DNA of 64,000 nt from Candidatus Omnitrophota bacterium. Its GTDB lineage: Bacteria; Omnitrophota; Gorgyraeia; Gygaellales; Profunditerraquicolaceae. The position numbers were made by a program, and so were the translations under genes. Within the stretch, counting starts at the first letter, position 1. Every line of letters begins with the position of its first letter. The DNA lies in contig JAQUOV010000003.1 of assembly GCA_028716965.1 (NCBI GenBank), positions 69,302 to 133,301 on the forward strand, given 5' to 3'. A model generated the notes under the pieces. The model was not told where the DNA came from, ran no database searches, and worked only from the letters and a program-made list of their open reading frames with translations. Positions 45,001 to 64,000 of the stretch are shown in pieces.

Positions 45001-48000
45001 CTGCCTACCCTGACCTTGATACTTCCGCCCGCCTCTAATTCTCCTGTAAACCGTGATGTCAAGATGCTTTTTCTATCCCTTTTCTCTTTCACATCTTCGA
45101 CCTTTACCCTGATGCTTTCTCCTCCTGTCAACAACTCCAATGCCTCCAGCTTGATATAGAGAGTGGCCTGATCCAGGGTGGAATGTAACACAAAGCTGTT
45201 ACTGAGCCCTAATTTTTCTCCCAGCTCCTTCATAGATTCCACAAACATGTTCTCATTTACCCTGCCCTCTTCTCCCAGCGCCTTGTTCTTTATATGCTGT
45301 CCGACGAAGATGAAATTAGGCAGACTTCCTCCTTCAAGGGTTATCACCCCGCTTAGCACCAGGCGATTATCAACCTCTCCCGCCACGTCCAGGAGATAAT
45401 GGATAAAGTAAAGCCAATCCAAGGGAGCTTTATCTGACCCCCGGTTGATCAATTCCTTTGTTTCTGCCTGCAATACTTTTACTACTTCCTGCTTTAGAGT
45501 TGCTCCTTTCTCAAGGCCCTTAAACCTATACCTCAATGCCGTCCTCTTAGCCTGGATTCTGTCGTTCTCCCTGATAGTCAAAGTTGCCTCAAGGTTCATC
45601 GGGTCTCCGGGAGAAGGGATATACCCCCATCCTGCTTTCTTAAGCATTTCCTGTAATTTACGGGAGCTTCCGCCATCATCATGGGGAGAACAAATAATCG
45701 CTATGCTTAAATTTTCGCGGCCGAAGACATCTCCAAGCAGGTTTTCCATGAGGATCGTCGGCACCCCTCCTGAACCACCCATTATTCCCACTATATTAGG
45801 CTTATTGTAAACACTCCTGTCTTCCGGCATCTTATTTAAAACAGGATTATCCCCTTCAGCCATCAATATTACGTCCTTGAACTTTATTTTCCCTTCTTTA
45901 TCGCTATTAATAATCCTGCTGATAAACCTGTTTAATTCATTGCGCCTGCCACCGAACACTTTTAATAAATCATTGTAATAGGGATTAAATAGGATTATTT
46001 CCAGGACCTCTTCTAATTCTTTGTCCGCCTGTCCTTGTCTTTTCTTAAGGGCGTGCCTCTCCCCGCTTTCCAGAAATTTCTTCAGCCTATTTAGCTCTCC
46101 TACCCCGATCAAAACGCTCAATAGTTCATCAAATTCGCCAATCCAGATATCTTTGTCATTTACTTTCTCCGTAATACGCCATTTTGCCTTGATATCCTTT
46201 ACCAAAGTGTCTTTTTCCCTGCCATCTTTTTTACCGAACCCTTTAGTATATAAAGAGCATACTGTATTGCTTTTTAAGTCGTGACGATCCAATAATTCCA
46301 CCAAAACTGCCAGCTTCTGTCTTGCGCTAAGTTCGCTGCCCAGGACGGTATCAAAAAATTCTTCTGTCTTTTGGTGGTGCTTGGCCCATGCGTCAGCGGT
46401 CATCCTGGAATATAACGGTGCAACTAAATTAAAATCGAGCAGTCCTTCATCCAAACCATCTACTATAATCGTATAAGTAAGCTCGCCTATCCGGCTATCC
46501 GTTTTGCTGCGCATTGCCATCATCAATTCGAAAAACTCTTTTTCCAGGCCAAAAATAGGAGCAACCATAAACATCTTGCGCAATACCATGCCATAAGCAT
46601 TTATATCTTTAATGCACAAGCCTAAAAGAAGCTCTTCCACCTTAGGCGCCTTACCCCGCTCCAGCAATTTTATCAATGCCGCGGCAAAGCTTGTATCATT
46701 GCCATCAGATCCATTTCCAACAAGTTTTACCCCCTCATTAACAGATAACTTAAACAACTTTTTTGCAAGATTAAGTTCCTGTTGCATAAGGCCATATATA
46801 CCATATTTTATTAACCCTCGTCCCGAAGGGATAACTGTATTAGCAAGCTTAACGCCTTTTTTGACCCGGACACCACGTTCTACCAACGCGTTGCTTACAT
46901 CTGCCCCTCCTCCTATTATTACCCTTCCCAAAAGCCTGACATTACTTAAAGTTACATCCCTACCCAACCTAACTCCCTCTCTCTTGGCCCCTCCCAGATC
47001 TAAATGCACGCGGCCAATGATGCGTAACCCCCTACCTATTCTTTTGGAAATATTACTGGTAGCAAACCTGCTGTCCGCTCTTCTACCTACGCCTAAGGTC
47101 AATTCGGATTCTACAGTTCTTTTGCCATCTTTAAAATCCTCAAATTCTACTCCTTCAGCCTCTTCTTCATCTTCCGGCGCTTTTTTATGCCTCAGGGCTT
47201 TTCCAAAAATCTCTTTCAATTGCCTTTTATATTGGCTGCTGAAACTGTGCTGCTTCGGGATATCTTTTAAACTCGCGGGAGCTTCCCCTACATCCACAAA
47301 TCCTATCGGCCAGGCGCCATCATATTCTTTCTTCTTTAATTCATTACTTAGCAACCTGATTAAATTCCAGGCCAAGGCAAGCGGCAGTTTTGTCTTATCA
47401 TCCGTCTGCCAATAAGCCTCCCTGCCTCTTCGCCCATGATAAGCGTCAAAATAATTCTCTATATCATTACGGAAGATCACTGTATTGGAATTGATCAGAA
47501 TATTTCCATCTCTGTCTATGGCGTATTCCCCTGTCAATTTTTGTTTCTCTGCCTGAGGCAATAAATGCCAATACTTCAATTCATTACCCAGTTTCTGCAA
47601 TTTATTTTTATCCTCATCTGCCAGCCCGCCCCAGTCAATCAGGGCTACCAACTTTCCCTCCTCGCGCCAGAAATTACCCTTTTTCTCCACCTCAAAGGTC
47701 CCATCGTCCTTACGGGAGGCCTTTTTGCCTCCGGCAGTAATGATATAATCTCCTATTACCGCCTCCATATAGGTTATCAAGCTGGCATTGGTCTTTTTCC
47801 TGTCCTGCGCGCTGGCCATCTCTCCAAAGACTATCTGTTTATAAGCCGTATTATAAAATTCTATTCCCAATGCGTTCTTGGCCAGGCTTGACAAATAATA
47901 TCCCGGTCCGTAGGGCTTACATAAACAAATTATCGCATCTTCGGTAAAATATTTCCTGCGCTTATACAAATCTATTTTATCTTCTGCCAACAGGCCTTCC

Positions 48001-51000
48001 TTCCATCCTTCCGGCAATAACATCCCCGCCTGCTTTTCCTTTATAACGGCGAGCTTTTCTTTTGTAACACGGACATCCTCGCCGCGTTTCTCTTTCTCAA
48101 GGAGCTCCTTCTCCAACGCAACAAATTGCCTCAGGTTATCAGCGCGCTTCTTTTCCATATCATCGATCTTCTCCAGCAATTCAGGTATATATTCATCTTT
48201 AACTATCCAGCGCAACTGGTGCATGGAGATAAATATCACCGGCCTGCTGCCGGGAGTCTTATATGAGCCGTTGATCGCCAGCCTTAAATTGGTTTCCCCT
48301 TGTGCGCCGATAAATAACCCCTTGTGCACCTGGTCGGAGAACCTGCTGCCTTTGCCGGCCAGCGCCACTAATTGCGCGGCGCCGAAGAATTTATTGAAAT
48401 CTTCCCGGGTTACATCCTTCCACAATTTCTTTATTGATTTTGCCGTTTTTACTGCCACCGCTTCCAGGTATGCGCGCGCCCTTCTCACCGCTTCCTGCTC
48501 ATCTTTAACCCGCTGAGAATTTACCAGGTTCTCTATACCGGCATATTCCTCGACCTTCTGCCTGAAAGCGCTTCTATGGAAAACATCCTTGCCGTCATCT
48601 TTTGTATGGCTTATGCCGCAGATAACCGCGTTTATCAACCCTTTACGCACTGCCTGCTTAATACCGGATTTCCTTTCTATTAATCCCAGCTCTATCAGCG
48701 AATCATACAACTCCATATTGTAATCAAAAACCACCTCTGTAAATGTTGTGCCTTTTTCATTTGCCTGCTCCATAATTTCTTCGTTGGCCACGCGTTCATT
48801 ACCGCCGTGCTTTGCCACAATAGCCTTGTATTCATCGGAAGCTATTGCCTGCTTGAATTCTAATAGGGTCTGCCTGGCTACATACTGATTTCTGTCCTCC
48901 TTACCTTCAGCCTTAATAACTTCTCCTGTTTTCTTGAAATAGCTGTCCCCCGTACCAACCGCTATACCGGCGGGTATATACGTAAAGACATACGCCTGTT
49001 GTCTTACGGGAAAACCGGTAGCCATAGATAACCCTTCACCTTTGGCTATTAATTTGTAATACCGTTCGATATTCCATCCCTGCGTACACTCAAAATTTGC
49101 CTGGCCGGAAAATAACCCTATAACCTTATCCGCCCCTTCTCCTCCCAGAAGTTTCGCTAACTCCTCGGTTATCCTCGTTGCGTCTATACCCTGGATTGCC
49201 GGCCCTTTAAGTATATGCACCCTCCTGCCTGTGTCTTTATACGCCCTCAAGTTCTTAAAGATATCTTCGTGCCTCTCAGACTTGTTTTTCAGTATCTCTT
49301 CAACCTGCTCAGATGAAATGTCATTACCCAGCACCTTCTCTTTGCACACCACAAACACCTCAAGGTTCTGGTTAAACTCCATTAATTTCTGGATAAACGC
49401 CAGATCAAATATTGCTTCGCCGTTATTATCAAAGAAATATACCAAACGCACTTTTTTCTGGGAATTTACAACTTCTTCATAAAATCTGCTGAAATCGCGT
49501 TCAAAATCTTTATTTGATAATTCTACGGACTCTGAAAATTTACCCTGTATAAAACCAGTAGGATCATTATCAAACTCCTGGCGTATGATAGGGTTATTGA
49601 TATCTATAACCCCTCCTACAAGCGCCAATTTTAACCAGCGGTCAATCTCTTCTTTGCGGTCAAAAAGCCTGCCGCTACCTGCCTCGTATACCGCGTCTAT
49701 TGCCAAATCATTAGCCATACTATTCACTGCTTTATACGGCTCAAATTCCCCTTGCAGGCTGCCTTCCAATTTTACCTGCATAATCCTACGCACAATATCC
49801 AAAGCGTAACTATTAGTTATGAATTTGCGTAACTGCCTTCCACCCAATTTCTGCGGGCACCACGATAACACCATGCTTACTGCCAATTGCATGTCAGACA
49901 AATACTCTTTTTCTGTACATTTTCCCGGATTTTGCTCTAAGTAAGCCTGCAACTCCTTTGGTATAATGCCCATTAAATATTTATGATAGTTCTCCCAAAA
50001 CGGCTTAGATTCCATCTCACCATGCGTATACAACCCTGCCTTATAATCCCAATGCCTCGGTAGAAGGTCTATTACCTTTATATAATCCGGCACATCGGTA
50101 TCCAATATAGGCAACCCTAAAACTTCGCGAATTATATACTCCTCCATATCCTTTTGAGTAATAGATTCTGCTGTAATCTTTTTTGCTTCAGGCTGCTGAT
50201 TTCTCCATTCAGCAACAAGTTCCTTATTAACCCAGTTGAATATTCCATTTATCTGCTCAAAGCTTGGAGTCTCCTCCCCCAGCGCCGATGAGGCCCCCGA
50301 GATCTGGCTGTACAGCCAGTTTGCCGCATTGATGGTGTTCTGGATATATGTTCCCCTTTCCTGCGGGTCATATCCTTTAAAGTCGTTGTTTCTGTAATTA
50401 TCGCGCTCTCTTAAGGCCTTGATCTTTTCAAGCATCCAGGCGGATATCTTGGGATCCTCCTCCTGCTGATAAAGCTTTAGATAATCCGCCGCGTCATCTC
50501 CAATACCTAAGCGGTATAACATCGCCGGCCTAAAGAAGCTGTCTAAGTAGGCTGTATCCTGGCGCTGGTCTAATACATCCCAGAGCCCCTGTATATAAAG
50601 TGGATCTGCTTTCTGGATATCAGAGGACAAAACATAGTAAGCGCCGAGTATCCCTTTGGCTGGATCTTTGTTATCAATAGCATGGTCTAAGGGATATTCA
50701 ACCATCTGCAGGATATTGTTTCGTAAGACAATTGTCTTGGTAGAACCGGCACTTACATTGATTACCTGCTTGAGATTGCCTCTTAACATCCAGGCAAGGG
50801 AGCCTGGACCGGCAATAAGCGTACCGCAGCGGCTGTTGACCACAACGCTGTCTACAAGGCTGCCTGCATTGATTATAGAGTTGATCACCACTACCTTTCC
50901 TTTGATATGCAGGTCCCCTCTCTTGTAAGAGGCTTCTGCCTCAGGGCTGTTGATAAAGAGAGGATATTTGCTTGATTGGGGGATCTTCAGCAGCGCACAG

Positions 51001-54000
51001 AGCACCTCTTTATTGCCTGTCTCTTCGGATAACAAATCATTGTAACTCTTAAACAGCGTAGGCGCTTCGCCGATATCGATGAAGCGGGATTCTTTTCCGG
51101 CGTCAAGGTAAACTAAACCGTCAACGCTTTCGCGTTCGCAGAGGACTTCTTTTAAACGCTGGGCAAGGTCATATATATAACCATAACGTTCAGTATCGGC
51201 AGCAGTAAGCTCATTGGTATGGGATTTCTTGGTCTTAAGAAGCAGGTATTTCTGCAGGGTCGGCTGGGTCACTGCCTGCAGGATATCAATAGAGAAGTCC
51301 AGGTTGAGCATCTTTAATTGCTGTTTAAGCTCTTCCTGCCTGTCCTTAGTCTCGGTAACAGCCAACTGCTTATGCAAGGCAAGTTTCTGCTGGAAGATGG
51401 TTTCATAATAGAGATCCACTACTACCCTGGCTGCCTCCAGGCTGTATCTGTGGTTCCACCAGTTAAAATTAGTATGGCCGCGTTCAAGGATATCCTTTAA
51501 TTCCATCCAGGTCATCGGCTTTTCGATCATCCTGCTGATCAACAGCGGGCTGTCTTCATCAGGCCAGATCTGGCCTAACTGGCTGATCTTGTAAAGCACC
51601 GGAGTATGGATCTTGCCGAGCCTGCCTTTATCCTTACCTAAGTACTCTTTTAATTTATCGTTAAGTTCGGATTCGGATAGCTTAAGGATAAGACGGTTAC
51701 CTTCCCTGTATATCCAACCCATGGCAATACACTCCTCTACTGCCTGCCGGGCATCCGCATAGTTGCCGAATACCTCAATGCCTTTGCCTAAGCCTCTTAC
51801 CGGCTGGGATATCGCCCAGAACTGGTCATTGGAGATGCAGGTAATAGAGCCTTTTGGAGTATCATCCAGTAATTGCAGAGCCTGCAGGTAAACCTGCTCA
51901 TTCAATTCCAGGGTAACACCTTTGTATACTGCCGGCACGATATTGCAGCCTTTATAGCCAAAACGGCTGGCAGTAAGAGGATAACCGCGGCTGCCTGTGC
52001 CTGCGGTATGTATCATCAGGACTTGCGGGTTAACAGGAAGCCTGCCTTCTTTGATAAGGCCAAGGATATAATGCTGGACAAAGACAGCGCCGTCAAAGTT
52101 ATACATCTCTACCTCTATACCTTCCATGGTACGGGAGATAACTTCTACCTTGGTGTCTTTGAAGAGTTCGCTTATAGGATGGCTGTTAAAACGCTGTCTT
52201 AAGAAGATTGCGTCTTTTTCGGAAGCAGTGGTATAAAACACCAGGTCAAAATTCCTGCCGCTTGCCAAATGCTCCTGCGCGCGCTGGATATAGTAGAGTG
52301 AAGCTTGGGGAGTCTGGTTCTTTACCGCGCGCAGGCCGATAATGAACTCTTCATGTTCCTTAATTAAGGTGATGAGCTCTTCCGGAGTATTCTTCTCAAG
52401 GAAGTTAAGCACTTCAGTACGGTAAATCTTATGTTCAAGCCAATGCCCGATTACGGCCTCAACCAGCTCAAGCTTATTTCTTAATGGCGCCAGGTTATCA
52501 AAGTGATTTTTCATCTCTCGGCTGATAAGCTCTTGCTCAAGAAGGTTATTAGTAAACAGGCGGCGTTCAAAATTCGGCAGCGCGCGTATAAATAGTTCAT
52601 GGAAGGAATTGACATCAGTATTATTTAGAAGCGGGGCAAAGAATGATGCTGCGATATGCTGGATCCTTAGTGAATTTGAGCGGGTTTTCTTGACAAAAGA
52701 ATTTATTAACGATACGATGGCAGCGAGTTCTTCCAGGGCTGTCTCTGCCGGGTTTGGCGCCCGCGCCTGCACGTGCTTAAGCAGAAGATGTAAAAGTATA
52801 TGGCGGAACTCTTCATAGAGCAGCTGATGGTATAAAAGGCTTGGCTCCTCCAGGAGAAGGTTATCAATAATTAAGGTAAGTTTATCTTCATTGTAGTAAA
52901 CAGCAGAGAGTTTTTTATAACCGGTGCGTACCTCAAGATTCAGCCCGGCCTCAATAAGCTCAGGATACATTTTACATCCTGTTTCATATATACCTGCCAG
53001 GTTCTTGGAAGCCGCTATCCTGCCTGCGCGGCGCAGGCTTGCGATAACATCAGGGAAGCTTCCGCTTAAGAGGACCTGCGAGATCTGTCCTTCAGAGAGA
53101 CGGTTAGCAAAAGAAGAGGTAAAGAGCGTGGTAACAAAAGCACCTAATCCTTCCTCCCCCAGCGCCGATGAGGCCCCCGAGATCTGGCTGTACAGCCAGT
53201 TTGCCGCATTGATGGTGTTCTGGATATATGTTCCCCTTTCCTGCGGGTCATATCCTTTAAAGTCGTTGTTTCTGTAATTATCGCGCTCTCTTAAGGCCTT
53301 GATCTTTTCAAGCATCCAGGCGGATATCTTGGGATCCTCCTCCTGCTGATAAAGCTTTAGATAATCCGCCGCGTCATCTCCAATACCTAAGCGGTATAAC
53401 ATCGCCGGCCTAAAGAAGCTGTCTAAGTAGGCTGTATCCTGGCGCTGGTCTAATACATCCCAGAGCCCCTGTATATAAAGTGGATCTGCTTTCTGGATAT
53501 CAGAGGACAAAACATAGTAAGCGCCGAGTATCCCTTTGGCTGGATCTTTGTTATCAATAGCATGGTCTAAGGGATATTCAACCATCTGCAGGATATTGTT
53601 TCGTAAGACAATTGTCTTGGTAGAACCGGCACTTACATTGATTACCTGCTTGAGATTGCCTCTTAACATCCAGGCAAGGGAGCCTGGACCGGCAATAAGC
53701 GTACCGCAGCGGCTGTTGACCACAACGCTGTCTACAAGGCTGCCTGCATTGATTATAGAGTTGATCACCACTACCTTTCCTTTGATATGCAGGTCCCCTC
53801 TCTTGTAAGAGGCTTCTGCCTCAGGGCTGTTGATAAAGAGAGGATATTTGCTTGATTGGGGGATCTTCAGCAGCGCACAGAGCACCTCTTTATTGCCTGT
53901 CTCTTCGGATAACAAATCATTGTAACTCTTAAACAGCGTAGGCGCTTCGCCGATATCGATGAAGCGGGATTCTTTTCCGGCGTCAAGGTAAACTAAACCG

Positions 54001-57000
54001 TCAACGCTTTCGCGTTCGCAGAGGACTTCTTTTAAACGCTGGGCAAGGTCATATATATAACCATAACGTTCAGTATCGGCAGCAGTAAGCTCATTGGTAT
54101 GGGATTTCTTGGTCTTAAGAAGCAGGTATTTCTGCAGGGTCGGCTGGGTCACTGCCTGCAGGATATCAATAGAGAAGTCCAGGTTGAGCATCTTTAATTG
54201 CTGTTTAAGCTCTTCCTGCCTGTCCTTAGTCTCGGTAACAGCCAACTGCTTATGCAAGGCAAGTTTCTGCTGGAAGATGGTTTCATAATAGAGATCCACT
54301 ACTACCCTGGCTGCCTCCAGGCTGTATCTGTGGTTCCACCAGTTAAAATTAGTATGGCCGCGTTCAAGGATATCCTTTAATTCCATCCAGGTCATCGGCT
54401 TTTCGATCATCCTGCTGATCAACAGCGGGCTGTCTTCATCAGGCCAGATCTGGCCTAACTGGCTGATCTTGTAAAGCACCGGAGTATGGATCTTGCCGAG
54501 CCTGCCTTTATCCTTACCTAAGTACTCTTTTAATTTATCGTTAAGTTCGGATTCGGATAGCTTAAGGATAAGACGGTTACCTTCCCTGTATATCCAACCC
54601 ATGGCAATACACTCCTCTACTGCCTGCCGGGCATCCGCATAGTTGCCGAATACCTCAATGCCTTTGCCTAAGCCTCTTACCGGCTGGGATATCGCCCAGA
54701 ACTGGTCATTGGAGATGCAGGTAATAGAGCCTTTTGGAGTATCATCCAGTAATTGCAGAGCCTGCAGGTAAACCTGCTCATTCAATTCCAGGGTAACACC
54801 TTTGTATACTGCCGGCACGATATTGCAGCCTTTATAGCCAAAACGGCTGGCAGTAAGAGGATAACCGCGGCTGCCTGTGCCTGCGGTATGTATCATCAGG
54901 ACTTGCGGGTTAACAGGAAGCCTGCCTTCTTTGATAAGGCCAAGGATATAATGCTGGACAAAGACAGCGCCGTCAAAGTTATACATCTCTACCTCTATAC
55001 CTTCCATGGTACGGGAGATAACTTCTACCTTGGTGTCTTTGAAGAGTTCGCTTATAGGATGGCTGTTAAAACGCTGTCTTAAGAAGATTGCGTCTTTTTC
55101 GGAAGCAGTGGTATAAAACACCAGGTCAAAATTCCTGCCGCTTGCCAAATGCTCCTGCGCGCGCTGGATATAGTAGAGTGAAGCTTGGGGAGTCTGGTTA
55201 TAAACATCCCTTAAAGAAGAGACCAGCCAGGAGTAGCGCTCTAGATCAGCGAATATATCCTCTAAAACAGTAACCCTAAGATAATCTAAAATCTCTTCGC
55301 GGTAGAGGTTATGCTGAAGGTAGTGTTGGATGAGTTCAGGGATTATTGCTTTAGTTGAGTAAAGCGGGGGTAGAGAGTCTATCTCCTGTTTGATACCTTC
55401 GGAAATAATCTTGTGATTTAGTAATAGATACAGCCTTTCTTTTTTGTTTGGAGACAGGGAGCGTAATAATATTTTATAGAAACCATTTTTATCGGTAGAG
55501 TTGATTAGGGGCAAGATAATGTTCTTTTGTTTCTTTGGGGGGAGCTTACCGAACATTTCCAGAAGCCGCATATCCGTGAGCAATTCTTCTAAAGCAATCT
55601 CTTCAAAGTTAGGCGCGCGGGCGCGGACATTGCTCATAAGTATCTGTATTAGCAAATGATGGAATTCTTCATGCATAAGCAGAAGTTGAAGCAGGCGGGA
55701 GTGCTCTAAAAGAAAATCTTCTATTAAAAGAGTAAGCCTGCCGGTGCGGTAATATACAGCAGAGAGTTTATTGTAGCCAGAGGTAATCTCTATCTGGAAG
55801 CCGGATTCGTCTAATTCGGGGTACTCTTTCTTGGCGCGGTTAAATACTTCAGAAAGGTTGCGTGCCTGATTTAACCTGCCTGCTGAACGCAGCGCGGTTA
55901 AAACTTCCTCTTTACTGCCGCGGTAAAGCACATTGAGCACCTGGCCTTCAGCGAGGCGCGTGGCGATTGAAGAGGTTAATAAGGATTCGGACGCGAGAAC
56001 TGGAGAGGCCGCTCCGTTTTCAATGCTGCTCCGATACAATTCCAGATATTTGGCAGCCGATATTTCCCAGCCGAAATTGCCATTTATGGCATTATTAATT
56101 AAAGCCAGCCTGTCTTCATCCTTCTGCCAAGCCATTATCGCCCGTTTAATAGCCGCTACCATTGCATCGGTGTTACACGGTTCAAAGAGAAAACCGTTTC
56201 CCTGCTTTGTCTTGGGATTAAATTCTACTACGGTATCTGCCAGGCCGCCTGTTTCGGAAACAACCGGGATTGTTCCGTTAACAAGGGAATAGATCTGGGT
56301 TAATCCGCAAGGTTCATACCTGGAAGGCATCAAGAATATATCCACTCCTGCCACAAGCAGCTTACCCAACGTTTTTATAACAGGATCATGCTGCTTGATT
56401 TTCATTCTAGTGCCTATACCATAATGCAGGCTGACCCTGCGCCTTAGCTGTTCAGGGAGAAGCCGAGTACGGTCTGTAAATTCCCTAAACAAGCTGTCAT
56501 CATCAGAACCAATCAATACAAACTGCACCCCCAGTTGCATAATTTCCTCAAATTTGTTCAGGATAAAATCAGCTCCTTTTTGCCTTGCAAAGCGGGTAAA
56601 CACTCCGATGATTGGCATATCAGAAAGCTCTAAATTCAATTCCCTTTGCAGCATAGCTTTATACCTGCCTTTGCCTGCTAAAACATTAGGCAGGTTATAT
56701 TCCTCTTCATTTCCTAATGATTTCCATTCATCATAATCTACGCCATTAAGTATTCCATGAAGATGCGCTTTCCTCTCTGATAGAACGCCTTCTAAGCCGG
56801 CGCCGAATTCTTCTCCGGGCTTTAAGATTTCCTTGGCGTACCTGTCGCTTACCGTCGTAATCTCATCCGCATAAATAATCCCGCCTTTCATAAGGTTAAT
56901 CTGGCCGTAAAATTCCAAGCCGTCAATGTTAAGCATCTCTTCCCTGTTTAACCCGGTAAGCTCAAAAAGATGATCATCAAACTTTCCCTGATAGTCAGGG

Positions 57001-60000
57001 CCTAAATTATGAATAGTGTATATTACCCTGCTATTTTCTAAAGATGGCTCATTCTTATAGTCGCTATGCTTTTTAAGTAACGGGGCAATCAAAGCAGCCT
57101 GCCAGTCATGAGGATGGATAATATTCGGGTTTAACTGGAATTCCTTAACCAGCTCTAAAGCGCCCTTAGAAAGAAACACTGCCTGTTCAAACATTAATTC
57201 TTTCAATAAGCCGGCGCGCTCATGCATATAGATCTCCCTACCCAATCTTTGGGTAAGATAATCCTGCGCAAGCTCAAAGTCAGAGTTTTGCGCTCCTAAA
57301 TAGAGTTTCTTGGAATATAGTGGGTGCTGCAGGAAGAATACAGTTACACCGTTAGATTTTGCAATCCATACCGGAGCGAATTCTTTTTTGTTGCCTATTT
57401 TTATTATTAAATCCCTGCCGGTATATTCAATGCCAAGCTTATTTCTTTTATCCTCATTAATGTCATCATAAAGCAGGGTACAGACAGATACTATCTCGCC
57501 GAGCTCGGATTGCGCTTTGGGTAAGATGCCTAAAACATCAGCTAAGCCGCCTGCTTTCGCGTAGGGGACAATCTCCGGGCTGACATGGAGTATCTTTAAC
57601 ATCTCAAGCGCGCTTGAAGCCAAGAGAGGCGGCGCGCGGGGCTGGGATTGTTTCAAGAGTAAAGGCGAAGAATTCGAGCCATTTAAATTATCCATAGGAC
57701 ACCTATATCCAGGCCGTGGCGTCCAACCGTATGGACAAACCCAGCCTTGGTCGCCACAATATACTGTAAAATCAGGACAATCTTTAATTTCAGATGTCGT
57801 AGCTGGCTCAGAAGGGATTTGTCGCTCAACAAGAAGCTGTTCCTCTGCTGAACTGATATCTTCAGCAACTTTTGCTGCAACTATATTAATTGCAAGGTTA
57901 GCTCTTTCTGGCGTCAATGTAAGTTTGCCGTAAGATACCAAGAAAATATTGTTATATTTCATATGAATATTATTAATCTGATCCTGAATTTTCTTTTTCT
58001 TTTCAAGACCATTGATTTTCTCTGAAGGATAAACTTCATTGCCCCAATCATCCACTTCTTGTATAAAACCAGTAATAATGTTGCGATATATGCTGTGAGT
58101 TCTAACCGCGTCTGCCTGAAAATAGCCGTGATAATCCCTTCCGACGAATTCCCATAATTCCATTATGCCATTTACATCCATATGTTTAATTACTTGATTT
58201 AAAGAATATGTTAATTTCTCGAGTCTGGTTAAATCAGCTAATAAATATCTGGCTATTCGCGATGCGTCTATTCCTTCTTTAATAATCTTTTCGGTTACAA
58301 TACATAGCCTTTTGAATAATTCCTGCTTATCATATTTTGAGACATCGCTATAATAATATTCTACTTTATTTATACAGTTGTTTGCTATCGATTCTTCAAT
58401 ATTTAGGTTTTTGATTAAATGTGTTTCAAATATACACATTCTTAACTTATGTAAAAATGATGGTTTTACTGATATTATATCGCCTTGCGACTGCCAACAA
58501 AGCCAACTTAATGAAAATACTATCTTGTTGATAATAAGAAACAGACCTCTCGCCAATCCTAAACCTGCGATGAAAATTAAACTGATCATCCAAGGCGATA
58601 ATGAGGTTATATAAGAGACTGCTGTGCAGCTGGGGACCAACAGCATTAAGCTGCTAATAGATAATACTGATAATATTTTAGCTAAGCGGGAGTTATCTTT
58701 TGGTTGTATCGGAGAGCTTACACCTTGTTTCCGGCTCTTAGATAATTCTTTTTCTATCTCCACTAATACCTGTTTGAGGCGAGCGATCTCTTTCGTGGTC
58801 TGGGATACCATGCGCTTGTCATTATGGTTGATATCCAGCGAGGCTATGGCTTGGGTTAAATCCATAACTATAGCAGTACCTTGCTCACGCACTTCTTCGG
58901 GTAGGGTGTTGACAAAACTAAGGGAATCCTTTATCTCCACTAATACCTGTTTGAGGCGAGCGATCTCTTTCGTGGTCTGGGATACCATGCGCTTGTCATT
59001 ATGGTTGATATCCAGCGAGGCTATGGCTTGGGTTAAATCCATAACTATAGCAGTACCTTGCTCACGCACTTCTTCGGGTAGGGTGTTGACAAAACTAAGG
59101 GAATCCTTTATCTCCACTAATACCTGTTTGAGGCGAGCGATCTCTTTCGTGGTCTGGGATACCATGCGCTTGTCATTATGGTTGATATCCAGCGAGGCTA
59201 TGGCTTGGTTCATGGTCGCGCTAATACGAGCCGCATGTTGCAATTTCAACTCTACATCCAGGCTATCCATAAAAGATTCGCTTTTTTGGACCAATGATAT
59301 TACTCTTTCCAGCGAAGTAATATACGCTAATGTTGCCGCCAGCCCACTTATTGATTTACTGCTGCTTAAGATGGTTTTTAATTTAGCTCTTTGCTCGTCT
59401 AAGCTCTTCAGGGTCTGCTGACATAAACTGTACACACTACCAGGTAAAGAGGTCATGTAACCGACTATTGCATTTAATTTCTTCATTACATTAATGATCA
59501 AATTCAACTCCTGCCTGGCCCACTCACGTTCAGTATTTTCATATAACGAACTTATTTTCTTTTTCGTATGCTCTATCTCCTCAGTAATTGCGGCCAATTC
59601 ACCGGCCTTCCGGGAACGGATGTCTTCAGCTATGCCCTCCGCGGCAATTTCTCCTTTTAGTTCGGCAATCTTATCATTATCTCTTAACAACTCTTCTCTC
59701 AATGGGGCAACCTTACTATGAAGGGTGTTGACGGCTTTCGCCAACTCATCAGCCGGAGTACCTTCGGGCGTAAGCCCAAATTCTTCAACCATAGCGGCCG
59801 CATATTCTGTTTTCCCAGGGAAAACCAACTTTCTCATCTCAGTTAAAGCCCCCTCAATATAATTGTACGCTTCCTGATGGAAGAATATCCTAGTCTGCTG
59901 TAAGCGGGCTTCGACTGTGCTGCGGGTTTCAAAATCAAGATTATCCCGGACAGCTTCAAAATCAGCGACTATACCAAGATAAGACTCCTGCAGTTTATTC

Positions 60001-63000
60001 AGTTTATAGCACCCGATTATCTTGGATAAGACAATGTGGGTAAGGAGGATACCACCTATCCAACCCACATACACGAATAACTCGCCGAAAGTAACCTTTA
60101 ACATAGCCTTGCCTAAAGCCAGGTAGAAATAATCCGGAAGAGGGACAAGGCCGAATAAGAAGAATGCGGTTGTGCCGATAACGTAAAAGCGGCTCAATTC
60201 CCACAATGCTCTATGCCATTTTGGCCAAGTGGATTTATTCTTTAGTATCTTATCAATGCCTAGTAATAAGGTTTTAACAATTAAATCACGCATATGACCT
60301 AATAGTACGGGCTTGCCTGCTTTAGGCATATAGGCCGAAAGAACATATAAAAGCATGAATGCGCTTAATATTAATGGCACAGCAAATATCCCCATATAGG
60401 CTAATCCAATGATGAAAGACCCAGAAGATTTTAAAGCGCCGTGCAGGAAATAAATCGTAATTATACCTAAGCCCAAGCCCAAAGTATCTATTGCTCTATC
60501 CCCCCACTCTCTGAAGCAGCCCTTGAAAAACGGCCATCTTTGGATACCTTTACCTAAGCTTACTCCCGGCTTATTCTCGCTTACAAAAGGACCGATTACC
60601 ATAGAGATACCGAAGAATGTGGAGATAAACAGGAATATGGCATTGGTTAAATCCAGCCCGACCATGAAGGCTATGACATTGAAAGTGGTCAAGACAATGC
60701 CGACTCCTATCTCTAATCTATAAAGTTTCCTGTTCTTTGATAAATTCATCTTAGAGAGAATATTATACTCCCCAAAGTTTCCGGCTCCGGAAGTAGCAAA
60801 GATGTATCCTACTCCTTTATAGCTCATTACCTGTGCTAAAGCTTCAAACATTACGCGATGGGCAAAAAGTATGATGTCTCTGGGTCGCTGGGATAACCAG
60901 CGTCCGACTCCCAGGAACGAAGCGCTGGAGAAAAATCCGTAAACGCCGATAATCGCGGAGATAACAATCCCACCGAATAAGTAATAATATAAATAAGCCA
61001 ATAATAAGCCTCCGATAATTCCACGGGCGAATTGCTTCGGTGAGGCAAATAACGAAGGCACGCCGGAAACTGCGCGTAAGTGCGCGCCGAATCCGTTAAA
61101 AGTGCTTATCTGATTGAATGCCGTACCGATAATTACAAAGGCTGCTCCTATCCCGACAAAAGGTAGCGTATCCAAAATAATGCCTAACGGTATAAGGAAC
61201 AAACCAAGCATAGCCACCGGCATAGTTACGTAGAACCTGGCAGTGTCTCTTCTGCCATCGCGCTCAAAAATAGCTTCCGGCCCAAAATCATTTATGGCCT
61301 GAATGATATAGCTACCCAGCGTCTGCGTTAACCCCCAGGACCAGCGCGGTACGGCATTCTCCAATTCTGCAGTGCTGTAACTTTCTCTCATCTTAAAGGC
61401 TAAAGCAAAGGAAAGCGCAAAATTCGGCCTTACCCCTAAAGCAATCAGGTTATGCGTCTGATACATAACATCCACAAAATCTTCGCTCTGATGCGGGGCG
61501 CTCGGGCCTAAACCTATTAAACCGTAACGATACCAATCGTTATATTGAGAATAAGGATACATCTCTTGCATTTCACTAGTAATGGGCATGACCGGCTGAT
61601 CAGAATTTCTTAAGGCCGCTAGATATCCATCCTCACCTTGATCAAGCAATTTCATGATGTTCATCCAACCCGTGCCTATTTTATCGTTCCATCCCAACAT
61701 TGAATATCCGTGTCCACCTTCTACTAACCAGGACATATTACCGAGAGGCATACGTATGTTAGTAGTATTCCTTAAAGCCGGCATGATTACAATCTCCGGA
61801 TTACTGATCATTCTCTTTAAATCATAAGCAAATGTATTTACATCAAGAGAGTTAGAGTTCCTATCCATAACTACGAGATACTTTAAGCGACTCATAATAT
61901 CATGCGGAAGCATAAATACCCCAAGCATCGCCCCTGATTTCAAAGTGGAAGGATTGGCGTTATGAGTATTGTAGAATCTCCCCCCTCCGGAGATATATTC
62001 AAAGAGTGTGCCGAGTACTTCATAATTCGCGATATCATCTTCTTGCCACCACTTTCCGAACTGATTATGTGTAGGCACCAAGACAAGATTCTTACCTAAA
62101 CCTTCTTCTCTGAGTTTGGCCGCAATATCCATAATATTTATCGGGGCATCAAAGGGCCAAAGGGCAGTGTTAGTCATTATGAGATGCCTTCTAACCGCGT
62201 GACCTATTCTGATTCTTGTTAACTCATCTTCGCTTACAGCTCTAATTCTGCAGATATCGGTGACATTAGGATCCTCAACCTGAACTAAGCTGAAAAGCGG
62301 AATGCCGTTAGCCACACTTTCCCATGTATGTTTCATAAGCTTCTTTTCCGCATCATCTAAATTTGACGACTTAATAAATGCCTTCATCTTATCCTGATAG
62401 TCTCTGTCTCTATAATATTTAAATACAAGCGTATCTTCATCGGGATTCTCAAAGAATTGCTGCCACTTGTTACTTCCTCCAAACATTTCCAGTATAATTC
62501 TTCTTGGAATTCGCGGCTCTTTCTCTTTGTTTCCAAGAACATTGAGTGCTTGCTCGATTTCTCTCATCACCTCTTCATCGCTTAAATTCATATTCTGAAG
62601 CATGACCCTTACTTCATCAAAAATGACATTGACCTCGGGAGAGTAATTATCTATCAGGTGTTGCAAACACGACATCATGGCTGCTGGATTCCTTACACTG
62701 TTCGAATGGAGCGGATGCCCCACATAGTTAATAAATATTAGATTGTTGCTTTCGATAAACTCGCTTATCTTAGTCTCGTCTACCTTGGTGGGACCGTGCT
62801 CTTCTTTATAAATAATGGTGGAGAGCCAAGTAACAAACGGCCATATACCATATTCCAAAAGATATACGAATAATGCCAGCCCTGAATAAATGCCTAAGGT
62901 AGCCCGGGCATACAATCCCGCATCAAAATGACTATAAATCCAAGGTAATGAGAACCAGCTAATTACTAATCCCAAACTCATAAATAAGGAGTATTTAGCT

Positions 63001-64000
63001 AAGCGTAATAACACTGTCCTCGGCCTGCCTACACCAATAGAAGGCCTAAAATTCCGGTAGCATGATAAACCCACCAAAGAGCGTCCGAAAACCAGGTTTA
63101 TTAACCCTTCCAAATATAAGGTAGTCACCAAGAAAACCTTTAAAACAAAGGTGCTTACTGAAACCACCGGCATAATACTGTGGAGTATGCCGGTTAAAGC
63201 AAGAATCAGCATACCATTAATGCTGAATAAATTACGTTGCGCACCAAATCTTAAGCGGGCCATTCTTCCGTACTGATAAAATGTGTTGAATAAAACAAGT
63301 AATGATACTACTGCCAACGCTTGCGGCACCAAGGCAGCGGCAAATATCGCCGAAAGCTTCCCGCTTATAGCCCAAGCATAAAGCGCAGCCGTATTAAAGC
63401 CCAAAATAAGCGCGTAAGGCAGGTAATAAGCCATCTCAATCAGATAGGGAGGTATGGACTTTGCCCCCCAGCCCAATCTTCTTTGCCATCTTTCTTTCCA
63501 GAAGCTCTTGAGTTCTTTTTTGATTATCTTGAACTCTTCAGGTAAAACATAAGGTGTAGCCGGATCAGTATTCTTTATGCTTATGCCGAGTTTTTGCAAA
63601 TCCTGCTGTAGGCTTTTAAAATCTTCCTTCTCCTCTCCCTCGGCCTTAACAGAGATTACCTCCTCAAGAGTTCTTTGGTTACCGACTTCTTTTTTGGCTT
63701 CAAATATTGTCTCGCTTCTCTTTCTAATTCTCTCGATCAATGCTGCCAAATCCTGACTAATCTCCCGATCAAACAATGTAATTCCTTCGGCTTTAAGAAA
63801 ACTCCGGAAATGCTCTAGGTCAAAATCGCCATCCACAAGCCTTATCTCTTTAAGAATACTGTCGAAACTATTCCTATCGCCAGTAACCAAGGCTTTCCTT
63901 AATTTATGCTCTATATTAAGGAAATACAGCTCCAGCTTATCCAGGATTTCTTCATCCGGATGCCCGATCTGATTATATGGGCTGTCTAAATTCAGAACGT
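1..64000 (-). CDS. Single giant multidomain ORF, partial at both ends (about 21,330 codons in window); protein larger than 21 kaa
   Basis: Minus-strand frame with codons at + positions 3k..3k+2 has no stop (no tta/cta/tca triplet in that register) in a line-by-line scan of 22611-64000 and in a hand translation of 1-22610. The frame register is the same at both ends (partial codons at 1-2 and 63999-64000). Recognisable protein motifs occur in this frame all along the window. No + strand ORF exceeds 267 aa. Confidence 0.85.
300..1450 (-). other. PPDK_N-like PEP/pyruvate-binding ATP-grasp domain (pyruvate phosphate dikinase / PEP synthase N-terminal family)
   Basis: MALLGGKANNLRSRAHLGITVPAWVCFTTDTW at about 1380-1440, GGSFISLPGQLDTILNVPMSD, SSAWGTACLLQEMVFGN...GTAVVFSRDF, and GKTTVYLLQSRAAP. 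Confidence 0.55.
8760..9700 (-). other. Histidine-kinase core: HisKA H-box plus HATPase_c (copy c)
   Basis: H-box MSHIIKNPLNAMG at about 9600-9630. N-box region LKIISYMLKNAQQAG, G1 box IRIRDEGGAGI at about 8985-9010, and G2 box GGNVSVESLPGEYTEFTVALP. Confidence 0.55.
12780..13150 (-). other. Response-regulator receiver (REC, CheY-like) domain
   Basis: VTILVVDDEPDLRKGIKNLL...LLVTSDISMPEMDGIALLDVLK...IPVVMIST...GAAGYFNK, with the acidic pocket, phospho-Asp and conserved Lys in canonical spacing. Confidence 0.6.
15750..16620 (-). other. YvcK/CofD-like (UPF0052) domain 1
   Basis: ILESGGGASIAMAGVIARM...LAVISGTDNGGSTLITRG at about 16450-16580. Confidence 0.4.
17000..21000 (-). other. Alpha-helical (HEAT/ARM-like) repeat region
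   Basis: Long Leu/Ala/Glu-rich helical periodicity in translation; weak call. Confidence 0.25.
21400..22610 (-). other. P-loop NTPase / kinase-like domain
   Basis: Walker A LDLLTGLGGSGKTTALGY at 22562-22610. Confidence 0.45.
26500..27000 (-). other. HExxH zinc-metallopeptidase-like motif (M48/M56-like)
   Basis: GLVMLFAHELKHILSGH, with the HELKH codons at about 26750-26764. Confidence 0.35.
29181..29201 (-). other. Walker A P-loop motif (GRSASGK) of a small kinase-like domain
   Basis: Translation ILLRIVGRSASGKVPLARHFGLF. Confidence 0.3.
29250..29650 (-). other. GHKL/HATPase_c-like ATPase domain (copy b)
   Basis: VKLVDNGRGMTADALQ at about 29450-29490 and GTGIDGQGIGIYTM. Confidence 0.45.
30600..31440 (-). 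other. HIT-like GDP-hexose phosphorylase / GalT-Apa2-like domain
   Basis: FGASVNHLHFQILY (H-x-H-x-Q) at about 30830-30880. Confidence 0.35.
31440..33020 (-). other. glgA: Glycogen/starch synthase-like domain 1 (GlgA, GT5 family)
   Basis: An in-frame Met at 33018-33020 starts MTILHISPEADPFSKEGGLADA. Further motifs: IHAHDWQAAMVAPL, FYSIHNLSYQG, RLVPDKGLDL, MPSRKEPCGLTQ, RTGGLADTI, and a C-terminal NFSWEVSASKYLELYRSS. Confidence 0.8.
33030..34130 (-). other. Cupin-like domain (class II phosphomannose-isomerase-like)
   Basis: GDIGRPHIHTPIDNQPLEVIIIQRGKARF at about 34030-34100, then HPALGHTHQFTA (a His-rich motif) closer to the GlgA domain. Confidence 0.35.
34600..34900 (-). other. GHKL/HATPase_c-like ATPase domain (copy a)
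   Basis: LAIDNGDGIPGIF (D-x-G-x-G) at about 34850-34875 and GNGMGF at about 34780-34800. Confidence 0.45.
35330..36880 (-). repeat. Tandem duplication of a roughly 258-aa domain (two diverged copies, period about 774 bp), unknown function
   Basis: Both copies share IMGGPFD / IIGGPFD, LYNVHATL, YGREDDEFY, KPSxxxNxxDFI and RRKxIKLNIP motifs. The + strand shadow ORFs 34948..35442 and 36022..36225 share ...GIFNF..FL.ASR ends. Confidence 0.6.
38900..40400 (-). other. GT-B glycosyltransferase domain (trehalose-6-P synthase / sucrose-P synthase-like)
   Basis: Translation WWVIEGEPLHFEVTKFF...IFLVHDPQPAFMFYLLKF...WQGHIQFHISQD...TIILQNGRFDELKDPEGVMIAYRMLAL...LLLTAPLPSDD resembles the OtsA/GT20 and GT4 pattern. 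Confidence 0.35.
40450..41400 (-). other. Metallo-beta-lactamase-fold domain
   Basis: HMHEDH motif (H-x-H-x-D-H) at 41364-41387 inside ISHLAITHMHEDHVAGALAYFE, with downstream His/Asp positions. Confidence 0.5.
44100..45800 (-). other. YvcK/CofD-like (UPF0052, 2-phospho-L-lactate transferase / gluconeogenesis-factor family) domain 2
   Basis: N-terminal IMGGSGGVPTILMENLLGDV and SIAIICSPHDDGGSSRKL...YIPSPGDPMN (about 45670-45800), and C-terminal IVLGPGSLVTSVLPVLMIPEIVEAIKR (about 44100-44180). Confidence 0.4.
50272..52319. repeat. 2,048-bp exact direct repeat, copy 2
   Basis: As above. Mismatches flank both ends (50271 vs 53151; 52320 vs 55200). Confidence 0.95.
50900..52100 (-). other. Nucleotidyltransferase-like (UDPGP / fucose-pyrophosphorylase-like) domain inside each repeat copy
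   Basis: Gly-rich NTP-binding-like stretch LMIHTAGTGSRGYPLTASRFGYKGCNIVP, followed by a beta-strand-rich stretch KGKVVVINSIINAGSLVDSVVVNSRCGTLIAGPGSLAWM. Assignment is tentative. Confidence 0.3.
53152..55199. repeat. 2,048-bp exact direct repeat, copy 1; in-frame coding of about 682 aa that includes a sugar-nucleotidyltransferase-like domain
   Basis: Nucleotide-identical to 50272-52319, offset 2,880 bp (a multiple of 3). The duplicated + strand track ORFs 53536..53808, 54094..54288, 54198..54380 and 54753..55082 equal 50656..50928 and so on. Confidence 0.95.
55200..56030 (-). other. Module A variable helical region (diverged paralog of 52320-53150)
   Basis: Translation starting SGAASPVLASESLLTSSIATRLAEGQVLNVLYRGS aligns at roughly 40% identity with the region upstream of repeat copy 2 (GEEGLGAFVTTLFTSSFANRLSEGQISQVLLSGS). 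Confidence 0.5.
56030..57602 (-). other. glgA: Glycogen/starch synthase-like domain 2 (GlgA, GT5 family)
   Basis: An in-frame Met at 57600-57602 starts MLKILHVSPEIVPYAKAGGLADV. Further motifs follow in the same frame: HPHDWQAALIAPLL, IYTIHNLGPDYQG, RFARQKGADF, MPSRYEPCGLTQIY, ETGGLADTV, and a C-terminal W-x-x-SA-x-x-YLELYRS. Confidence 0.75.
57696..57790 (-). other. Cys-rich knot CPDFTVYCGDQGWVCPYGWTPRPGYRCP (possible Zn or disulfide motif)
   Basis: Five Cys residues within 28 residues in the ORF frame; no family recognised. Confidence 0.25.
58520..58700 (-). other. Hydrophobic transmembrane-like segment(s)
   Basis: Translation ILSVLSISSLMLLVPSCTAVSYITSLSPWMISLIFIAGLGLARGLFLIINKIV. Confidence 0.4.
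58755..59208. repeat. Perfect 177-bp tandem repeat, about 2.6 copies (58758-58934, 58935-59111, 59112-about 59208); encodes 59-aa repeats in the minus-strand ORF
   Basis: Identical DNA units seen directly. The minus-strand translation per unit is about KDSLSFVNTLPEEVREQGTAIVMDLTQAIASLDINHNDKRMVSQTTKEIARLKQVLVEI. The + strand ORF 58624..59421 is its antisense shadow. Confidence 0.9.
59215..60000 (-). other. Coiled-coil-like charged helical segment
   Basis: Heptad-like Glu/Lys/Leu-rich translation (ELLRDNDKIAELKGEIAAEGIAEDIRSRKAGELAAITEEIEHTKKKISSLYENTEREWARQEL). Confidence 0.3.
60000..63550 (-). other. Polytopic membrane region (multiple hydrophobic helices) flanking a roughly 430-aa soluble loop at about 61500-62800; possible membrane-embedded synthase/anchor module
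   Basis: Translation gives long hydrophobic runs such as LILALTGILHSIMPVVSVSTFVLKVFLVTTLYL, MPVAMLGLFLIPLGIILDTLPFVGIGAAFVIIGTAF and IGVGIVLTTFNVIAFMVGLDLTNAIFLFISTFFGISMVIGPF. The loop contains GHAVRRHLIMTNTALWPFD...LVLVPTHNQFGKWW. Confidence 0.5.

Follow-up and report, generated by a model that had tools for sequence, protein, structure and literature searches.

How does a stretch of coding DNA come to hold two and a half copies of a long unit without a single difference between them, and what part, if any, does such a unit play in the protein that carries it? The question is raised by a perfect 177-nucleotide (nt) tandem repeat in a 64,000-nt stretch of a Candidatus Omnitrophota genome (assembly GCA_028716965.1, contig JAQUOV010000003.1, positions 69,302 to 133,301), hereafter the window, whose own numbering is used throughout. 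The repeat lies within an open reading frame (ORF) that runs the length of the window on the minus strand, and its origin is probably, if by no means certainly, a very recent in-frame gain of one or two units in an older array of 59-amino acid (aa) helical repeats, housed in a loop of a giant multi-enzyme membrane protein.

The extent and structure of the repeat are unambiguous. Tandem Repeats Finder (TRF) places it at 58755-59208 (period 177, 2.6 copies, 100% matches, 0% indels, score 908), making it the top-scoring tandem repeat of the 64-kilobase (kb) window, in which the runner-up scores 61. Direct string comparison resolves two identical full copies, 58755-58931 and 58932-59108, and a partial third copy, 59109-59208, equal to the first 100 nt of the unit, for an exact total of 2 x 177 + 100 nt; identity ends sharply on both sides, with zero bases beyond, and the junctions appear by inspection to be free of microhomology. 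The repeat is in frame on the minus strand (177 nt being 59 codons) and encodes aa 1597-1748 of the window ORF. In gene orientation it consists of a 100-nt segment A, encoding QAIASLDINHNDKRMVSQTTKEIARLKQVLVEI, which alternates with a 77-nt segment B, encoding KDSLSFVNTLPEEVREQGTAIVMDLT. An earlier note on this DNA had given the coordinates, period, copy number, perfect identity, and a peptide of the repeat, all of which were reproduced by TRF and string comparison; its claim of recent expansion is borne out by copies that are nucleotide-identical over the whole 454 nt, and it was right to deny a CRISPR (clustered regularly interspaced short palindromic repeats) array, given that the units are contiguous, the would-be spacer B is itself exactly repeated, and the array sits within a long ORF. 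A CRISPR array, with repeats of 23-50 nt and unique non-coding spacers, is ruled out by these contiguous coding units. The target of a diversity-generating retroelement, whose variable and template copies would differ at adenine positions, was likewise discarded, the copies being identical and no reverse transcriptase domain being found among the Pfam matches of the whole window ORF. A plus-strand gene was also considered; the 265-aa ORF in question (58624-59421) runs antisense to the giant one, and its length is owed to the repeat. Lastly, a foreign insertion was rejected on the basis of the guanine-cytosine (GC) content of the unit, which is close to that of the window (0.46 vs 0.43), and of the occurrence of the unit family in relatives.

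Sequence comparisons point to the 59-aa unit being an old repeat that has recently been re-expanded. A unit profile, for which one unit was taken from the window and two from a related protein (P0002, described below), recovers two full units and a truncated third within the exact repeat, together with an older, diverged unit immediately upstream in the gene (units 1, 2, 3, and 0, respectively, in Table 1), and finds no further units elsewhere in the 21,332 aa. The profile, itself made without unit 0, matches this unit over aa 1551-1612 (independent E-value, or i-Evalue, 0.007), the last 14 residues of the unit reaching into the perfect repeat. By Smith-Waterman alignment, the unit scores 62 against the 266 aa upstream, compared with 32.9 +/- 6.3 for shuffles, 0/500 of which reach 62, and its alignment to the upstream flank covers two further unit lengths. 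In the register of the family, the exact repeat runs from within the tail of unit 0 to a point beyond the first helix of truncated unit 3, the first 20 residues of which are those of units 1 and 2 before divergence sets in (EKELS...). Twelve units from three proteins could be aligned into a helical family, termed here 'LP', with a period of 58-62 aa and the pattern K..I..L...L...K....FL..L(P)....k......I..L...L..LN, in which a near-invariant leucine before a usually proline-containing turn is conserved across the three proteins; the units of the other proteins are otherwise 17-28% identical to the window unit. Within the searches made, the family is uncatalogued and appears confined to a handful of very large ORFs.

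Predicted structure is in keeping with a helical array. In a single-sequence AlphaFold2 (AF2) model of the linker, all is helical, with two helices per unit (~25 and ~19 residues) and SFVNTLP and SLDINHND turns, such that the unit is probably a helix-turn-helix; the predicted local distance difference test (pLDDT) score over aa 1414-1550 lies between ~45 and the low 80s, and from ~aa 1490 onward it is under 60. The model thus agrees with an amphipathic, helical unit as proposed earlier, the repeat being all-helical at a pLDDT below 50. The description of the segment as coiled-coil-like can be kept in part: the helical prediction and one ~28-residue heptad-like stretch per unit, RMVSQTTKEIARLKQVLVEIKDSLSFVN, favor it (a crude, uncalibrated heptad score of 0.62 vs a 99th percentile of 0.42 for the ORF), whereas Pro/Gly/Asn-rich turns that break each unit, and the same low pLDDT, do not. 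When the linker was searched against Pfam and against PDB sequences, the matches were sub-threshold or repeat-inflated, those to PDB being insignificant; a Pfam match to UBM (24.4 vs a cut-off of 23.3 bits) was dismissed as one 13-residue match counted twice.

Relatives of the array are few. The repeat-bearing segment (aa 1331-2130) had no match in a word-indexed set of 5.8 billion proteins, GTDB representatives, JGI metagenome contigs, or IMG/VR, and a 12-unit profile had none in the 5.8-billion protein set. An exhaustive phmmer search of the linker against 1.84 billion representatives, by comparison, yielded four matches, two of which carry the 59-aa unit: P0002 (E-value 1e-8), with a membrane module of the window type (57% identity) followed by units such as VIRLKELLIEIKTALVFIQALPGSV and DAISSLIVKVIRLKELLIEIKTALVFIQALPGSVFLRGDDLIKDLKAQLDLLNAQRANRQA, and P0003 (4e-8), in which seven or more diverged units, each of 58-61 aa, were counted. 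The remaining two are P0004, a GYR/YLP repeat protein set aside as a chance repeat-on-repeat match, and P0005, a tape measure protein (PF10145 at 179 bits) whose match (3.3e-4) falls in the linker ahead of the perfect repeat, at a level close to noise. Particularly informative are two contigs that share the membrane module. L002, the one relative found among GTDB representatives and labeled by its submitter as 'uncultured Planctomycetales bacterium', bears a 14.7-kb uninterrupted ORF that is homologous to aa 2-1413 of the window (51.5% identity) and not further; here, the membrane module runs straight into another module and the array is absent. L003, the contig of P0002, has the architecture of L002 with an array inserted between the membrane module and the next module, and the number of units is therefore apparently free to vary. 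The L003 array comprises at least four units with a 177-nt period and 59% identity overall, within which one exact run of 43 nt occurs at offset 177 and another of 59 nt extends across a scaffold gap, a mosaic of identity that would be typical of patchy gene conversion.

Several peculiarities of these contigs deserve mention. The gap in L003 (JAQVAM010000030.1, 7851-7950) is a run of 100 N inside the homologous array, and P0002 (2,375 aa) ends solely due to it, the frame being open from the contig start and resuming beyond the gap. In L001 (ERZ27250192 k141_810696), a single in-frame TAA at ~1156-1170 separates two same-frame ORFs, both homologous to one continuous ORF of L003; this codon could be a site of read-through or an error of sequencing, or it could mark a real gene start ~456 aa upstream of the window edge. 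In L004 (JAFGHF010000069.1), the 5,641-aa protein P0003 starts and ends with MRNLAASLGS and its gene fills the 16,980-nt contig, an arrangement that suggests either a looped assembly or a contig whose ends meet in a repeat. A literature search for GCA_028690815 found nothing.

Table 1. Features of the window around the exact repeat; amino acid numbers refer to the window ORF
Feature	Position	Strand	Basis
Single frame of 21,332 codons without a stop, running off both ends of the window	3..63998	-	six-frame scan
Conserved membrane module, aa 2-1413	59760..63995	-	51-57% identity to P0001/L001, L002, P0002/L003
Whole ~440-aa loop between membrane anchors, aa 1330-1772, holding the array	58683..60011	-	hydropathy, lysine/arginine-rich flanks
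Lineage-specific helical part of the linker, aa 1414-1550	59349..59759	-	BLASTP homology to L002 ends at aa 1413; AF2 DSSP
Older diverged unit 0, aa 1551 to ~1596	59209..59348	-	Smith-Waterman, profile search
Perfect tandem repeat, A(BA)2 in gene orientation	58755..59208	-	TRF and exact string check
Unit 1, aa 1611-1669	58992..59168	-	unit-profile hmmsearch, i-Evalue 6.6e-30, partly by construction
Unit 2, aa 1670-1728, nucleotide-identical to unit 1	58815..58991	-	unit-profile hmmsearch, string check
Truncated unit 3, aa 1729-1753, first helix only	58740..58814	-	hmmsearch 4e-06 / 2e-04, profile 1-24
Two-helix transmembrane hairpin, aa 1773-1795 and aa 1802-1828	58515..58682	-	Kyte-Doolittle maxima 1.91, 2.33
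GlgA-like Glyco_transf_5 and Glycos_transf_1, aa 2135-2637	56088..57596	-	PF08323 4e-56, PF00534 4e-13

The array is held between two membrane anchors (Table 1). On its N-terminal side stands the membrane module, which was found in just three other metagenomic giant-ORF fragments and which, by hydropathy, has transmembrane (TM) clusters at aa 213-304 and aa 920-1329 (63087-63362 and 60012-61241 in window coordinates) with a soluble domain of ~600 aa between them. On its C-terminal side, hydropathy agrees with the TM-like segment previously proposed to flank the repeat opposite the multi-TM region, and splits that segment into two helices. The hairpin so formed has six lysines and arginines in its N-flank, none in its uncharged 6-residue loop, and two in its C-flank; the GlgA-like domain is the next enzyme domain, ~300 aa beyond. 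Because of the positive-inside rule, and because this neighbor, of the glycosyltransferase families 5 and 1 (GT5 and GT1), needs nucleotide sugars, the loop with the repeat most plausibly faces the cytoplasm. The part of the linker at aa 1414-1550 lacks detectable similarity to the equivalent position in L002. As for the membrane module itself, Pfam yielded no family for aa 536-1330 even at E<=10, nor any for its other parts at E<=0.01, PDB sequences gave no match, and an AF2 model of the soluble domain from a 2-sequence alignment (pLDDT 36.9) was too poor for a fold search to be run. The soluble domain is strongly conserved in MPLGNMSWLVEGGHGY and HQSEDF...PRWSWG, at 61476-61493 and 61332-61349. 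A processive GT2/GT48-like identity, suggested solely by an 'SED ... RW' motif with spacing like that of processive glycan synthases and upheld by no tool, was not adopted and is mentioned as a lead only; a module of P0003 with a similar-looking SED...RW motif is not detectably homologous to the window membrane module.

The 177-nt repeat is not the only exact duplication in this ORF. A stretch of 2,048 nt (a length that happens to equal 2^11) occurs at 50272-52319 and again, without a single difference, at 53152-55199, at an offset of 2,880 nt or 960 codons, with 832 nt of unique sequence between the copies. Two modules of ~950 aa stand in tandem here (aa 2672-3616 and aa 3624-4576), and the copies make up their C-terminal portions. 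Over their N-terminal 260 aa, the modules are ~51% identical in protein and ~55% in nucleotide sequence, and identity then jumps abruptly to 100% with no gradient. Such a pattern requires that the modules arose by an old duplication and that part of one was replaced or converted very recently; the A-B-A logic is shared with the 177-nt repeat.

The most likely course of events, which is also the simplest to accord with all the observations, may be outlined as follows. From an old array of diverged 59-aa units, exchange of sequence between neighboring units, by gene conversion or replication slippage, would have created an exact A...A pair (A-B-A), whereupon unequal homologous recombination between the exact A copies could have added B-A to give A-B-A-B-A, all of these steps being too recent for any substitution to have arisen in 454 nt. 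At least two events are needed because a single tandem duplication yields exactly two copies, as opposed to the 2.565 observed. On the cytoplasmic face, the array itself most likely acts as a structural spacer that tolerates changes in length, each additional unit contributing 59 aa with frame and topology unchanged; unit gain would probably be near-neutral, and the repeat would represent a snapshot of giant-gene growth and internal homogenization as opposed to a regulated switch. A spacer is favored over a switch or an exposed stalk because the array is absent or variable in relatives, its units are 17-28% identical between proteins, and the loop is anchored at both ends. It should be stressed that we infer the path of recombination, the placement of the loop in the cytoplasm, the role as a spacer, and the neutrality.

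A number of points count against this explanation. The non-integer copy number (2.565) obliges it to invoke at least two events, the order of which we infer, and neither the B segment nor the flanks retain similarity at the nucleotide level that would record the first step. The copy number is that of the assembled sequence, and neutrality is an assumption. The helix-turn-helix unit and its role as a spacer are taken from secondary-structure prediction alone, the AF2 model of the linker having a mean pLDDT of 52.5 (below 50 in the repeat), too poor for fold searches. Sidedness, in turn, depends on the positive-inside rule and on the substrate expected for a GlgA-like domain; two preprints on giant proteins acknowledge that topology predictions for such proteins are unreliable, and that some predictions set metabolic domains outside the cell (bioRxiv 10.1101/2023.11.21.568195; bioRxiv 10.64898/2026.06.07.730766).

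The dependence on the assembly invites the suspicion that the copy number is a product of assembly, in which case the A...A pair would be real (at least A-B-A, possibly more units), the loop would have been traversed an arbitrary number of times, and the 2.6 copies would say nothing of the size of the expansion. Identical copies of 177 nt exceed typical short reads and k-mers and so are uncountable by short reads, and the 100-N gap within the homologous array of L003 illustrates that such arrays defeat short-read assembly. Nevertheless, the contig crosses an exact repeat of 2,048 nt with a twin 832 nt away, a feat that normally takes long reads or manual curation, and long reads able to cross 2,048 nt would span 454 nt many times; furthermore, the structure is in frame with a period equal to the conserved 59-aa unit. 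An artifact of this kind is consequently regarded as unlikely, and even then 100 nt must truly recur exactly at a distance of 177 nt, so that recent homogenization stands. The earlier note proposed a length-variable spacer or stalk, hence a candidate contingency locus. An adaptive element of this sort would gain and lose units to tune reach or spacing or to vary an exposed epitope, and selection for variation would keep its copies identical, in the manner of certain Gram-positive surface proteins with identical repeats. The repeats are indeed identical and in frame, unit number ranges by lineage from 0 to at least 7, and homogenized patches recur in an independent lineage. Against these stand the mere 2.6 copies, a 177-nt unit that is unable to shift the frame, membrane anchors at both ends of the segment, which make it a loop with no free stalk, a charge pattern and a GlgA-like neighbor that favor the cytoplasm, and a second exact repeat of another size (2,048 nt), which suggests a general background of recombination with no dedicated variable site. 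The overall proposal is thus improbable, and its parts fare differently: a contingency locus is contradicted by a unit of 3 x 59 nt in 2.6 copies, deep in a 21,332-codon ORF and without on/off effect; a length-variable spacer agrees with an array that is absent in L002 and has at least four units in L003 and at least seven in P0003; and a stalk is at odds with the double membrane anchoring and a likely cytoplasmic location. In favor of exposure, one preprint argues for an outward orientation of many domains in the giant proteins of Omnitrophota (bioRxiv 10.64898/2026.06.07.730766).

Two further accounts ascribe a more specific duty to the unit. Were the ~28-residue heptad-like helix a binding or oligomerization motif, its partner could be a soluble enzyme, a different loop, or a second copy of the giant protein, and extra units would raise valency. 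The heptad stretch does exceed the 99th percentile of the ORF (0.62 vs 0.42), and the unit pattern is conserved across three proteins; however, the score is an uncalibrated one devised for this analysis, neither Pfam nor PDB offers a convincing match to a known interaction domain, the 17-28% identity between units of the different proteins is as expected of a structural spacer, and the array is dispensable in L002, leaving little likelihood for such a motif. There is equally a slim chance that the 59-aa array constitutes a tunable tether exclusive to giant membrane proteins, with a unit number that is recurrently reset by recombination among homogenized units. If so, unit number would determine how far a membrane-embedded and possibly glycan-synthase-like module stands from the next membrane-anchored glycosyltransferase, and copy number would be an adaptive, fast-evolving parameter of a single-polypeptide polysaccharide-assembly machine.

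Several better-known kinds of repeat invite comparison. The repeats of alpha C/Rib, SasG/Aap, and Esp are secreted, wall-anchored, and beta-rich, occur in many copies, and have documented strain-to-strain variation; in Gram-positive proteins with identical repeats, copy number shifts by homologous recombination, altering protein length alone. The window units share with them a considerable length that is a multiple of three, an intact frame, and nucleotide identity, yet differ in being helical, located between membrane anchors, probably cytoplasmic, and present in 2.6 copies. Contingency loci consist of long tracts of 1-9-nt units, in which changes alter the reading frame or the spacing of a promoter and so turn expression on or off; an intragenic tract prone to unit gain and loss is common to both, whereas the window unit is 177 nt long and in frame. 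In spectrin-type repeats and the repeats of phage tape measure proteins, tandem helical units set length by their number. The window array resembles these helical spacers and rulers in being made of tandem helical units, though its unit of 59 aa differs from that of spectrin (106 aa).

The surroundings of the repeat fit what has been described for giant genes of Omnitrophota. At this base composition, the chance of a frame as long as the window having no stop is log10 P ~ -610, and Pfam domains are spread along the whole ORF, ~85% of which is without a Pfam match. Glyco_transf_5 (PF08323) and Glycos_transf_1 (PF00534) occur twice, at aa 2135-2637 and again near aa 10327-10853, alongside HATPase_c (PF02518, twice), Response_reg (PF00072), PPDK_N (PF01326), CofD (PF01933), ARMT1-like (PF01937), Lactamase_B (PF00753), and TreT_GT1 domains. 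The TM-like neighbors of the repeat are as the earlier note described them, but the minus coding strand, the single giant ORF, and the older repeat family had been overlooked. Giant multi-enzyme membrane proteins of Omnitrophota are treated, under the name 'Archaeovorins', in one preprint (West-Roberts et al., 2023, bioRxiv 10.1101/2023.11.21.568195). Another defines a 'multi-enzyme metabolic' class of giant Omnitrophota proteins, lists starch synthase PF08323 and GT1 PF00534 among the commonest domains, and reports that 17% of long Omnitrophota genes contain strict identical tandems, which invariably occupy small fractions of the coding sequence (bioRxiv 10.64898/2026.06.07.730766). The window ORF resembles these giants in its more than 21,000 codons in one ORF, its many TM segments, and its internally duplicated domains; with at least 21,332 codons it is of the size applied to Omnitrophota-type giants (>10,000-30,000 aa), and it agrees with them in TM segments and Pfam repertoire, the latter being that of the published list (PF08323, PF00534, Response_reg, HATPase_c, PPDK_N). 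Short identical nucleotide tandems are likewise found both here and in a minority of Omnitrophota giant genes. Pfam has no family for either the 59-aa unit or the membrane module, and no description of them appears in the passages of the two preprints searched. A recent survey holds the repeat architecture of such giant genes to be mostly ancient.

On the favored explanation, then, the repeat is an ordinary recent in-frame duplication and homogenization, and its value is that of a dated footprint of the building and reshaping of a giant gene. Taken together, the 177-nt and 2,048-nt repeats and the homogenized patches of L003 would indicate that recombination between internal paralogous segments is ongoing now. 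The repeat also marks a site at which assemblies of giant genes break or may miscount, the gap in L003 falling exactly there. Moreover, the 59-aa linker unit, previously uncatalogued, can help to segment giant proteins into modules for structure prediction.

Finally, several minor observations concern other duplicated parts of the ORF. The first copy of the 950-aa module contains an HExxH-like MHEEFHH motif (55656-55676), with a degenerate YEEFRH in the second copy (52800-52817) and an HHEFYH near aa 2530 of the L002 ORF, in a seemingly equivalent module; the motif, for which there is no Pfam match, may be a metalloprotease-like site. GC skew over 50001-56000, which coincides with the duplicated 950-aa modules, is near zero (-0.07 to +0.06), compared with -0.1 to -0.3 elsewhere. 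The second GlgA-like GT5 and GT1 module (31440-33020) lies 24.5 kb downstream of that at 56088-57596 in the ORF, and the two are 52% identical in protein, with 72-79% nucleotide identity in patches. An old tandem duplication of ~265 aa at 35253-36833 (aa 9056-9321 vs aa 9314-9582) has 48% identity between its halves and no Pfam match.

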